Source: a virus
Lineage: Duplodnaviria; Heunggongvirae; Uroviricota; Caudoviricetes
Strand: one strand, 5' to 3'
Length of the DNA: 4,782 bases
Virus record (IMG/VR): IMGVR_UViG_2681813320_000019
Span: 1-4,782 of that record
The position numbers and the translations under genes are program-made. Under the pieces are notes generated by a model, which was given only the letters and a program-made list of their open reading frames with translations, was not told the DNA's origin and did not search any database. Positions 1 through 4,181 of the stretch are shown here, one piece after another (the stretch's first letter is position 1; the number at the start of each line of letters is the position of its first letter).

Positions 1-75
1 CAGTTATCCATGCTTCTTGAAGGTATCAACTGGAAGCACCCGAAACGAACGGAACGCGCTGGAATCCGCATATAA
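1..75 (+). CDS. tnpB: IS66-family accessory protein TnpB (orf2), 3' partial; last 24 codons only
   Basis: Frame 1 is open from the window edge to TAA at 73-75 and translates to QLSMLLEGINWKHPKRTERAGIRI*. It ends 19 nt before the IS66-type transposase start, which is the tnpB-tnpC arrangement of IS66-family elements. The identification rests mainly on this context and on recall of TnpB C-termini; the 5' end lies outside the window. Confidence 0.65.
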   Translation, partial: QLSMLLEGINWKHPKRTERAGIRI

Positions 76-94
76 CCCGTTGTAAAGTGAGGAT

Positions 95-1666
95 ATGGAC
101 ACCTCACTTGCTCATGAGAACGCCCGCCTGCGGGCACTGTTGCAGACGCAACAGGACACCATCCGCCAGATGGCTGAATACAACCGCCTGCTCTCACAGC
201 GGGTGGCGGCTTATGCTTCCGAAATCAACCGGCTGAAGGCGCTGGTTGCGAAACTGCAACGTATGCAGTTCGGTAAAAGCTCAGAAAAACTTCGTGCAAA
301 AACCGAACGGCAGATACAGGAAGCACAGGAGCGAATCAGCGCACTTCAGGAAGAAATGGCGGAAACGCTGGGTGAGCAATATGACCCGGTACTGCCATCC
401 GCCCTGCGCCAGTCTTCAGCCCGTAAACCGTTACCGGCCTCACTTCCCCGTGAAACCCGGGTTATCCGGCCGGAAGAGGAATGCTGTCCTGCCTGTGGTG
501 GTGAACTCAGTTCTCTGGGATGTGATGTGTCAGAGCAACTGGAGCTTATCAGCAGCGCCTTTAAGGTTATCGAAACACAACGTCCGAAACTGGCCTGTTG
601 CCGGTGCGACCATATCGTGCAGGCACCAGTACCTTCAAAACCCATTGCACGCAGTTATGCCGGAGCGGGGCTTCTGGCCCATGTTGTCACCGGGAAATAT
701 GCAGACCATCTGCCGTTATACCGCCAGTCAGAAATATACCGTCGTCAGGGAGTGGAGCTGAGCCGTGCCACACTGGGGCGCTGGACAGGTGCTGTTGCTG
801 AACTGCTGGAGCCGCTGTATGACGTCCTGCGCCAGTATGTGCTGATGCCCGGTAAAGTCCATGCTGATGATATCCCCGTCCCGGTCCAGGAGCCGGGCAG
901 CGGTAAAACCCGGACAGCCCGGCTGTGGGTCTACGTCCGTGATGACCGTAACGCCGGTTCACAGATGCCCCCGGCGGTCTGGTTCGCGTACAGTCCGGAC
1001 CGGAAAGGTATCCATCCACAAAATCACCTGGCCGGTTACAGCGGTGTGCTTCAGGCCGATGCTTACGGTGGTTACCGGGCGTTATACGAATCCGGCAGAA
1101 TAACGGAAGCCGCGTGTATGGCTCATGCCCGGAGAAAAATCCACGATGTGCATGCAAGAGCGCCCACCTACATCACCACGGAAGCCCTGCAGCGTATCGG
1201 TGAACTGTATGCCATCGAGGCAGAGGTCCGGGGCTGTTCAGCAGAACAGCGTCTGGCGGCAAGAAAAGCCAGAGCCGCGCCACTGATGCAGTCACTGTAT
1301 GACTGGATACAGCAACAGATGAAAACACTGTCGCGTCACTCAGATACGGCAAAAGCGTTCGCATACCTGCTGAAACAGTGGGATGCACTGAACGTGTACT
1401 GCAGTAATGGCTGGGTGGAAATCGACAACAACATCGCAGAGAACGCCTTACGGGGAGTGGCCGTAGGCCGGAAAAACTGGCTGTTCGCGGGTTCCGACAG
1501 CGGTGGTGAACATGCGGCGGTGTTGTACTCGCTGATCGGCACATGCCGTCTGAACAATGTGGAGCCAGAAAAGTGGCTGCGTTACGTCATTGAACATATC
1601 CAGGACTGGCCGGCAAACCGGGTACGCGATCTGTTGCCCTGGAAAGTTGATCTGAGCTCTCAGTAA
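95..1666 (+). CDS. tnpC: IS66-family transposase (TnpC/orf3 type), complete, 523 aa
   Basis: Uninterrupted 1572-nt ORF with ATG at 95 preceded by a purine-rich GTGAGGA at 87-93. The N-terminus is leucine-rich and coiled-coil-like ([47 protein letters not shown]). Paired CxxC motifs (ECCPACGG ... CCRCDH) form a zinc-finger-like segment, and an acidic-residue-rich catalytic core follows. Length and these motifs match IS66-family transposases (ISEc8-like) as I recall them. Confidence 0.93.
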
Positions 1667-1696
1667 ATATCAATACGGTTCTGACGAGTCGCTTAC
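1667..1696. repeat. Putative right terminal inverted repeat (IRR) of the IS66-family element
   Basis: Segment atatcaatacggttctgacgagtcgcttac ends in CGCTTAC, the reverse complement of the GTAAGCG terminus typical of IS66-family IRs. The matching IRL is outside the window, so the pairing cannot be confirmed. Confidence 0.35.
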
Positions 1697-1771
1697 GCAC
1701 ATCCTCCCTCTCTGAGTTAATGTTTTTGTCGTGACATAAGAATAATTCCTTACACTCAATCTTCGTAACGC

Positions 1772-1809
1772 TCCCGCAGTTCCTGTCCGTGAGCACTGCG
1801 GGATTTTTT
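1772..1809 (+). terminator. Intrinsic-terminator-like hairpin plus T-tract, plus-strand orientation
   Basis: A 9-bp GC-rich stem (tcccgcagt at 1772-1780 pairing with actgcggga at 1795-1803) encloses a 14-nt loop and is followed directly by TTTTTT at 1804-1809. On the minus strand the stem is preceded, not followed, by the A/T run, so it is unidirectional. Confidence 0.4.
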
Positions 1810-1814
1810 CGCTT

Positions 1815-2495
1815 TTATGCCTGCCGCCCGATAACCACCACCTTCCCGTCACCGCCTTCATCACGGGTACTGATGTCCTGGGATATACGGCGGGAGCCAA
1901 CCAGCATTTCCCCGTAAGGCACCGGCATCGGGTTCCCCTGGGCAATCATGTTATCCAGCGAGGAAAAGTACGTGTTCTGTCTGCCGTTATCCGTTGCGCG
2001 GTAATCCGGTGTTTTTGCCTTCGGGGCCAGCATCTGGGCCACACCGCCCAGAATCATGCTGGCTCCAAGTGAAAACAGCATCGTGGTGGCAGAAAAACCA
2101 CCGGCTGCCAGGGCTGAACCCCATAACGCCATTGATGCCCCGGCAGTGAAGAAAGAGCCCACGATGGCTGCCGCCCCCAGCACAATCTGCAGTCCACCCT
2201 TTCCGGCCCCGGCCAGTCGCGGCACAATGTGGATGACCGTTCCCTCACCCAGCTGTTCGTGAAGACGGGCGTACACCGCCTCCGGTGCCGTGTCCTCACC
2301 GCGAATACGTATCTGGTACCAGCCTTCGTTCATCTGACGGCGGAATCCCGGCATCTGCATCGACAGGGCACGAATGGCTTCCGCTGCCGTGTTCACATAC
2401 AGGCTGAGGCGGCGGCCAAATCGTTGTAAATCCCCGTGAAGGCAGATGCGTGCCAGTGGCGGTGACGCCAGACAGAATGCGTTCGTCGTTGCCAT
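1815..2495 (-). CDS. I: Lambda gpI-like tail tip assembly protein I, 226 aa
   Basis: ATG at 2495-2493, TAA at 1817-1815. Recognisable gpI segments include ARICLHGDLQRFGRR near the N-terminus, a central Gly/Ala-rich hydrophobic stretch, and the C-terminal NTYFSSLDNMIAQGN ... YGEM.VGSR ... VVVIGR. The start lies 103 nt inside the upstream K gene in another frame, as in lambda K/I. Confidence 0.9.
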   Translation of the reverse strand: MATTNAFCLASPPLARICLHGDLQRFGRRLSLYVNTAAEAIRALSMQMPGFRRQMNEGWYQIRIRGEDTAPEAVYARLHEQLGEGTVIHIVPRLAGAGKGGLQIVLGAAAIVGSFFTAGASMALWGSALAAGGFSATTMLFSLGASMILGGVAQMLAPKAKTPDYRATDNGRQNTYFSSLDNMIAQGNPMPVPYGEMLVGSRRISQDISTRDEGGDGKVVVIGRQA

Positions 2496-3136
2496 TTTTC
2501 GGAATACCTCTCCCGTTTACTCAGTTGTTCAGGCAGATGGTGAAGCAGCTCACCGTTGCCGCAGTATATGGCGGCATGATTGGCCACCGATGCGCCAAAG
2601 CAGCACAGCAGGATATCGCCCGCCTGTGCAGAGGACAGGGGCACCCGGTAAAAGCCGGTGACCGCCATATTGTCCAGGTACAGGTTCTGACCATTGCGCC
2701 ACCAGTCATCCTCACGCTCAAAATCCGGCATATCAATTCCCGCCAGATGGTATGCATCCCGGAACAGCGTGTAACAGTCCGTCACCCCGTGCTCAAAGAG
2801 CCGTCCTGTCAGATGTGGCACACAGCGGAATTTATGAATGTCCCCCCGGCAGACCAGCCACCAGGACAGTGCACTTTTTATCTGCAGCCGCCGGTCGGCC
2901 TCGCTCAGCCAGGGCAGACCACCGGGATGACTGTGGACCAGTGCCACAATCTCCCCCTGCATCTCTGCCCGCAGCCAGTCTTCCGGTGCAATACGAAAAT
3001 ACGCCTCCGGCTCTGCAGAGATATTCACACAAGGGATATACCGCTCCCCCTCCGGCGTTCTCACCACGAAGCCGCACGACTCCGCAGGCACACACCGCCG
3101 GGTGTGTGCCAGAATCACTGATTCTGTCTGTGTCAT
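2393..3136 (-). CDS. K: Lambda gpK-like tail tip assembly protein K (MPN/JAMM plus NlpC/P60 type), 247 aa
   Basis: ATG at 3136-3134, 5 nt after the L stop. Contains a JAMM-like motif (HSHPGGLPWLSEAD, i.e. HxH-x7-S-xx-D, with upstream Glu residues) and an NlpC/P60-like Cys/His set (GVTDCYTLF ... ANHAAIY ... LLHH). Position between L and I matches lambda gene order. Confidence 0.9.
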   Translation of the reverse strand: MTQTESVILAHTRRCVPAESCGFVVRTPEGERYIPCVNISAEPEAYFRIAPEDWLRAEMQGEIVALVHSHPGGLPWLSEADRRLQIKSALSWWLVCRGDIHKFRCVPHLTGRLFEHGVTDCYTLFRDAYHLAGIDMPDFEREDDWWRNGQNLYLDNMAVTGFYRVPLSSAQAGDILLCCFGASVANHAAIYCGNGELLHHLPEQLSKRERYSEKWQRRTHSVWRHRHWHASAFTGIYNDLAAASACM

Positions 3137-3141
3137 TGGAT

Positions 3142-3840
3142 TTACTGCGAAAGTTTGTTAATGGAAAGGAAACCGCCAAAATTAGCCACCATGCCGCGCA
3201 TCTCACACCCGCGCATGCACTTGCTGCATCTGTCCTTACGGATATCGGTGGTGGGTTTATCGAACTCATCCGCCACAGCCCCGCCCGTGTAACCACACTC
3301 ATCAGAGCGGTAGGTCCACATACAGGTGTTCGCCAGCATGATGCGACCGGGAAACAGCGCCCCGTCCGTCTCGGTCGGTGTGGCCAGCACAAACGAGGCC
3401 GTCATGGCCGTCAGCGATGACATCTGCTCCACCACCCACCGGTCAGTCAGCTCCTGCTCCGGGTCGGCCTCCGGATTGCCTGCCACAAAATTCACCGCAT
3501 CCAGAAAACGGGCATACACCCGGCGGCGGACCACCGTGGCCCCCACCAGGCTCTGCAGGTCCTCCGCCATTCCGGTGACAAGACCAAACAGATTGGACAC
3601 CGTCAGCGACGGTCTGGCACTGCTGCCCTTCCCGTTCATCTCAAAGCCGCTGCCGTCAATCGGGTACGCCTGATATTCACGCCCCTGCCAGGTGACCGGC
3701 TCCCCTTTTTCATTCAGTTCATTGCAGAAAAAATAGCGCTCACCGCCCTGCACCGTCAGGTCGATTTCCCAGAGTACCACACGCGGTGACTGCTCTGACT
3801 TAACCGACTCGTTCAGGCTTTCTTCGTGAATATCCTGCAT
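3142..3840 (-). CDS. L: Lambda gpL-like minor tail protein L, 232 aa
   Basis: Start chosen at the internal ATG (3840-3838) that gives MQDIHEESLNE..., the lambda-like N-terminus. It has an AGGTGGTGA Shine-Dalgarno about 6 nt upstream and overlaps the M stop by 1 nt (TGATG). The longer ORF from 3867 would overlap M by 28 nt and is less likely. Conserved gpL segments include VVLWEIDLT, GGERYFFCNE.NEKGEPVTWQGR.YQ, VRRRVYARFLDAVNF, FPGRIMLANTC.WTYR.DECGY, and the C-terminal Cys cluster ending NFGGFLSINKLSQ. Confidence 0.9.
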   Translation of the reverse strand: MQDIHEESLNESVKSEQSPRVVLWEIDLTVQGGERYFFCNELNEKGEPVTWQGREYQAYPIDGSGFEMNGKGSSARPSLTVSNLFGLVTGMAEDLQSLVGATVVRRRVYARFLDAVNFVAGNPEADPEQELTDRWVVEQMSSLTAMTASFVLATPTETDGALFPGRIMLANTCMWTYRSDECGYTGGAVADEFDKPTTDIRKDRCSKCMRGCEMRGMVANFGGFLSINKLSQ

Positions 3841-4181
3841 CAGTTCACCACCTGCTCTATCGTGCAACTGAAATCACTGTACCGGGCATTATCCGTGACA
3901 CTCCACTCACGGCACACAACCCTCACCGTCCGGTTATGTTTCGGCGGTCGCCACAAAAAGGCACGGTAACCACCATGCCACGATAAAAACTCTTCCAGCC
4001 AGCGCCGGGTTGACTCATCCGTCACCCGGAACACCGCCTGAAACGTCTTCAGTTGAGGATTCAGCCCTGTGGGGCGACGCTGTTCATAACCGTCACCAAA
4101 CCGCACCCTCGCCACCGACGGTTTCTCACTCACCTGCATCCCTTCACGCGGGACCAGATGCAGCGTTTTTATCTCAGCCAC
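3840..4181 (-). CDS. M: Lambda gpM-like minor tail protein M, 113 aa
   Basis: ORF with a GTG start at 4181-4179 and GGAGG about 8 nt upstream; the start overlaps the last 8 nt of H. Contains VRFGDGY, FLW.PP and the C-terminal EQVVN that I recall from lambda gpM. The exact start codon is less certain than the gene identity. Confidence 0.85.
   Translation of the reverse strand: MAEIKTLHLVPREGMQVSEKPSVARVRFGDGYEQRRPTGLNPQLKTFQAVFRVTDESTRRWLEEFLSWHGGYRAFLWRPPKHNRTVRVVCREWSVTDNARYSDFSCTIEQVVN

Follow-up and report, generated by a model that had tools for sequence, protein, structure and literature searches.

A probable intergenic insertion of an ISCro1-type element next to tail gene I of a lambda-like prophage

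Overview of the locus

The window analysed here, a stretch of 4,782 nucleotides that constitutes the whole of draft contig CYDS01000123.1 of assembly GCA_001283565.1, joins the right-hand portion of an IS66-family insertion sequence to the tail genes of a lambda-like prophage (Table 1). Comparison with uninterrupted relatives indicates that this arrangement very probably results from an intergenic insertion of an ISCro1-type element that did not interrupt the tail-tip gene J, since the element lies in non-coding DNA, in the spacer that separates tail gene I from a cassette carrying the superoxide dismutase gene sodC. The left edge of the contig falls inside the IS, so that the window's own left junction lies beyond its sequence. 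Both ends of the window, positions 1 and 4782, lie in sequence present in many copies among finished E. coli genomes, namely the IS66-family tnpB region on one side and the H tape-measure gene on the other, and for this reason the contig boundaries probably reflect assembly breaks rather than biology.

Table 1. Features of the window, with coordinates, strand and supporting observations
Feature	Position	Strand	Basis
ISCro1-type IS, right-hand 1,696 bp	1..1696	+	100% identical to L005, L007
tnpB 3′ end, last 24 codons and stop	1..75	+	QLSMLLEGINWKHPKRTERAGIRI = TnpB C-terminus in full copy L007
tnpC, IS66-family DDE transposase, 523 aa	95..1666	+	PF03050, PF13817, PF13005, PF13007
Right terminal inverted repeat, ending …CGCTTAC (reverse complement GTAAGCG…)	1667..1696	+	Conserved at the ends of all copies
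GCACATCC, right copy of the 8-bp target-site duplication	1697..1704	.	Empty site L001 6001-6008
Final 12 bp of the sodC cassette 3′ flank	1697..1708	+	Homology to sodC-less L017, L018 begins at 1709
Conserved non-coding spacer adjoining the I stop	1709..1814	.	Common to prophages with and without sodC
Terminator-like hairpin and T6	1773..1809	+	Folding and terminator scan
Tail assembly gene I, 226 aa, intact	1815..2495	-	Lambda_tail_I domain; 66% identity to lambda I
Gene K (JAB/MPN and NlpC/P60 peptidase), 247 aa, intact	2393..3136	-	Pfam PF14464, PF00877
Minor tail gene L, 232 aa, intact	3142..3840	-	Pfam PF05100, E=2e-91
Minor tail gene M, 113 aa, intact	3840..4181	-	Pfam PF05939
Tape-measure gene H, C-terminal part, cut by contig end	4174..4782	-	Pfam PF09718

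Identity and termini of the insertion sequence

Members of the IS66 family share a three-gene layout, tnpA-tnpB-tnpC. The initial annotation had attributed the element to this family, and the attribution is borne out by the reading frame at 95–1666 (+), which matches PF03050 (E=6e-104) together with the zf-IS66, LZ and C-terminal domains. All three genes are present in full copies of the element (L007 and L010–L012), which are 99–100% identical to the window over the shared part. The IS of the window is 99.9% identical to the ISCro1-annotated copies in L010 and L012, and its transposase is 2 amino acids away from a RefSeq-named ISCro1-family protein and 12 from the IS679 protein; the designation as ISCro1-type follows indirectly, from copies whose transposase is named 'ISCro1 family' by RefSeq. 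ISCro1, an element named in Citrobacter rodentium ICC168 (PMC3072379), is matched by the tnpB-tnpC layout, by the 2,699-bp length of complete ISCro1-type copies, by the GTAA… inverted repeats and by the 8-bp duplications. No substantive difference from ISCro1 is apparent, and the window element probably represents one more copy. A related element, IS679 (2,704 bp), displays approximately 97% identity to the ISCro1 type over the right 2 kb, whereas its left 0.6 kb is unrelated.

The right end of the element had been placed at about 1696, and the exact terminus is indeed at 1696/1697. When window positions 1600–1900 were compared by megablast with 5,426 finished E. coli genomes, alignments starting only at window position 1697 (query base 98) were obtained in thousands of genomes, with identities of up to 100%. 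The 30 bp that precede this break (…GGTTCTGACGAGTCGCTTAC, ending at 1696) correspond to the conserved right end of the 2,699-bp ISCro1-type copies. GTAA-type inverted repeats, which had also been anticipated, are present at both extremities: the right end reads …CGCTTAC at 1696 and the left end reads GTAACCGG… in L007, L014 and L010–L012, with 18 of the first 30 terminal positions matching between the two ends. Clean 8-bp duplications flank sister copies within single genomes: GAATAATT in L011, TACCACTC in L010 and TTTTAATT in L012.

The right junction of the window, with a 100% identical IS, is also found in a sister assembly (L005), in a metagenome scaffold (L007) and in a short metagenome contig (L013), which makes four independent assemblies together with the window. 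None of the 5,426 finished E. coli genomes searched contains an ISCro1 junction at the window site. Metagenome and species-representative genome contigs harboured no match to the predicted left junction, and scans for the right junction contributed a single contig, 1.2 kb in length.

Short draft contigs with repeats at their ends, of which the window is one, may be chimeric, an IS copy having been joined to an unrelated prophage fragment. This explanation is highly improbable here, as the same junction recurs in a second NCBI assembly, in two metagenome contigs and, with IS679 as the occupant, in one finished genome. Moreover, the position of the break coincides exactly with a genuine IS terminus, and the other half of the duplication is present in E. 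coli 3431.

The I–J gap and the sodC cassette

As the initial annotation had observed, the 118 bp between the IS end and the stop codon of I (1815–1817), that is positions 1697–1814, contain no J-like start. The origin of this segment becomes apparent on inspection of an uninterrupted relative, O103:H2 12009 (L001), in which gene I is followed by a 190-bp spacer, by sodC on the opposite strand and then by J, whose start lies 851 bp beyond the I stop. Window positions 1697–1814 are 100% identical to the I-proximal part of this sodC-I spacer. Position 1697 of the window corresponds to position 6001 of L001, and the insertion point is located in non-coding DNA between the two genes, at a distance of 72 bp from the sodC stop and of 110 bp from the I stop. 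The uninterrupted sodC-I spacer is present in 539 of the 5,426 finished E. coli genomes, many of which are O157:H7, and O157:H7 genomes match it at 100%. In the sodC-less relatives L017 and L018, I and J are separated by a 238-bp spacer, which shares with the window only the equivalent of positions 1709–1814, the I-proximal 106 bp.

These comparisons bear directly on the principal reading of the initial annotation, according to which the IS lies within J, or at its start, and splits the gene. Two observations appeared to favour it: the absence of a J start from 1697–1814 and the example of lambda, in which 60 bp separate the end of I (15444) from the start of J (15505). The lambda spacing had been stated correctly, but it does not extend to the present prophage lineage, in which the gap amounts to 851 bp with sodC and 238 bp without. 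The missing J start is to be expected because the uninterrupted relatives have no J start in this segment either: there, the identical sequence is a non-coding spacer that runs on to the 3′ flanking sequence of sodC, and the insertion point is not adjoined by any J sequence. The empty-site comparison puts the IS between the sodC stop and the I stop and thereby refutes the reading of a J gene split by the element, which is left with a very low probability. Alignment of 1697–1814 to the I–J regions of related prophages, which had been suggested as a check, upholds a natural intergenic site and speaks against a divided J, a result close to the one that the initial annotation had named as contrary to its reading.

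The sodC of the uninterrupted relatives resembles the known prophage sodC, whose AASC lipobox signal it shares; it occupies the gap between J and I and is read from the opposite strand. In the window, by contrast, the gene itself lies outside the sequence and only the final 12 bp of its 3′ flank are present (1697–1708). Comparison of the spacer with L018 2370–2607 places the right boundary of the sodC cassette at window position 1708/1709, and the IS target is situated 4 bp inside this mosaic boundary.

A further feature of the spacer is a hairpin with a stem of 8–9 bp, formed by the pairing of 1773–1780 with 1795–1802; the hairpin is followed by T6 and resembles a terminator for the strand opposite the tail genes. 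Its folding energy is −16.1 kcal/mol (z = −2.1), and it is also detected by a terminator scan. An Rfam search of window positions 1600–1900 returned no match. The hairpin is kept in the sodC-less L010 and L018 and is retained whether a prophage carries sodC, another cargo or no cargo at all. This predicted terminator may shield the tail genes from antisense transcription emanating from the cargo slot. Another hairpin is located directly after the sodC stop (L001 about 5936–5958), on the other side of the insertion point.

The uninterrupted spacer also accommodates a 15-codon open reading frame (MCRSFQGERIYRPEE) on the tail-gene strand, running from 6006 to 5959 (-) of L001. Its ATG lies inside the IS target, with GAGGGAGG upstream, and the IS takes the start away. 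The occurrence of this reading frame is probably due to chance.

Mode of insertion

The left side of the insertion is represented in E. coli 3431 (L014, from the viral-contig collection). On this contig an intact sodC is followed by …GAACG GCACATCC joined directly to GTAACCGGCTCATTT…, which is the predicted left junction. The IS portion of L014 is of the ISCro1 type, with 4–6 mismatches in 690 bp. The octamer GCACATCC that precedes the IS left end in E. coli 3431 is identical to the octamer found immediately after the right end of the IS in the window (1697–1704), and it is present once in the empty site, at L001 6001–6008. The 8-bp target duplication that had been expected is therefore represented by the right end of the window and the left end of L014, the evidence for the two junctions being drawn from different genomes. 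Judged from the sequences, GCACATCC on both sides, together with the duplications around sister copies, is the signature of ordinary IS66-family transposition.

The course of events that is proposed begins with an ISCro1-type element, which would have transposed into the non-coding spacer between the sodC cassette and tail gene I. Transposition would have duplicated the 8-bp target GCACATCC and disrupted no ORF. The IS genes run in the direction of sodC and converge on the tail genes. On the far side of the IS and of sodC, J would then be situated about 3.5 kb away from I, compared with 0.85 kb in the uninterrupted locus. Late transcription, which is antiterminated, could presumably still reach J through the IS.

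Fate of J in the genome of the window

The ISCro1-type left junction of L014, at which both sodC and a full-length, though frameshifted, J are present, suggests what may lie on the far side of the element. The chances that the window's genome likewise retains sodC and J beyond the IS, with a left side of the 3431 type, are judged slightly better than even.

A different outcome is exemplified by strain 12A (O111:H2), the only finished genome with an IS at the right-junction nucleotide of the window. In 12A the right junction is identical. The left end of the IS adjoins the tail-fibre C-terminal gene, and a deletion of 6,446 bp has taken away the fibre genes, lom, J and sodC. The 8-mers on the two sides are not alike (ACTGTATC versus GCACATCC), and there is no duplication. 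The metagenome scaffold L007, too, combines an IS identical over the shared 1,696 bp and the right junction of the window with an unrelated left flank, again with no duplication. By analogy, sodC and J may have been lost from the window's genome through a deletion or rearrangement associated with the IS, which would deprive the prophage of its tail-tip gene; the probability of this alternative is put somewhat below one half.

The 12A element is a canonical 2,704-bp IS679, 96.7% identical to the window IS, and not a hybrid, which marks the 12A arrangement as a separate event. An origin of the 12A element by recombination between ISCro1 and IS679 was considered and rejected, because mismatches are distributed evenly along the element and other IS679 copies match it at 100%. 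As for L007, this short metagenome scaffold extends just 50 bp into the right flank, and no finished genome contains its left junction. Its left flank (1–1079) comprises a multi-copy GTPase island gene and an IS2 fragment that are contiguous in no finished E. coli genome, and on this account the scaffold is unreliable as a proxy for the left side of the window. L007 may be a mis-join produced by assembly across a repeat, the other possibility being that IS copies have genuinely undergone rearrangement with one another. A deletion of sodC and J would in any case be compatible with an intergenic insertion, as it concerns later events only.

Tail genes and integrity of the prophage

The gene order H-M-L-K-I, recognized in the initial annotation, is supported by Pfam matches for all five genes and is that of lambda. 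The likeness to the lambda tail module extends to a 103-nt overlap between K and I and to gene I itself, which over residues 1–224 shares 66% identity with lambda I. Both the RefSeq relatives and the gene calls of the contig itself assign gene I a 193-aa product (start at 2396), which loses part of the Lambda_tail_I domain (residues 15–97). Starting instead with the ATG at 2495 gives a 226-aa reading frame whose alignment with lambda I begins at residue 1 and which restores the 103-nt overlap with K.

A defective prophage had been suggested on the strength of the IS position. That position does not imply a defect, and nothing in the window shows one, I, K, L and M being intact, but a defective state is plausible in view of the lesions that are observed in IS-bearing relatives. 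The J gene of E. coli 3431 (L014 3940–7429, -) has lost a single base at each of three places, as judged from an intact J with 95% identity: J nucleotides 1281, 1786 and 2728, in conserved contexts. The first stop is encountered at codon 431. The contig has intact sodC, lom and fibre genes, and as the coding sequences of lom, tail fibre and sodC on L014 are devoid of indels, sequencing error is not favoured as the cause of the J frameshifts. The truncated 430-aa J product, EFU96654.1, identifies E. coli 3431 as the strain from which L014 derives. It was also considered as a link between L014 and the assembly of the window; a homology search returned no exact representative, in a collection of 15 billion proteins the product was found only in E. 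coli 3431, and it was discarded for this purpose.

In the sister assembly L005 (GCA_001284365.1), I, K and M are intact and the L gene (L005 3495–4193, -) carries a nonsense mutation at codon 142, TCG to TAG. Strain 12A is without J altogether. The independent tail lesions of these IS-bearing relatives fit a decaying prophage lineage.

Recurrent insertion in the sodC-I spacer

Two different IS66-family elements occupy the identical nucleotide in the same orientation, one at window position 1696/1697 and the other at 8097/8098 of L002 (12A). The occupants are the ISCro1-type element in the window, L005, L007 and L013, and the canonical IS679 in 12A. A third insertion, of ISCro1 with the target-site duplication GAATAATT, is located 43 bp closer to I in Z1323HEC0010 and 24AR0142, where sodC, J, lom and the fibre genes are intact. 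All three insertions fall within the 190-bp spacer, near the boundary of the sodC cassette. The IS66 family is usually regarded as showing little target preference. That the sodC-I spacer constitutes a preferred target of IS66-family transposases is a tentative idea and is considered rather unlikely; if true, such a hot spot would imply a sequence- or structure-directed choice of target in this family.

Implications

Every component of the locus is already known: the ISCro1-type element, the lambda-like tail module and the prophage sodC cargo. The event itself is of an ordinary kind, an IS insertion between genes that happens to fall at the edge of a draft contig. Nevertheless, it illustrates that the rule 'J follows I' is an unsafe template for lambdoid prophages of E. 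coli, because cargo genes such as sodC occupy the I–J gap, and that nothing can be read from an IS at a contig end about the sequence beyond it. The independent tail-gene lesions in IS-bearing copies represent ordinary prophage decay, and the recurrent insertion of IS66-family elements at one nucleotide provides a small lead on target choice.
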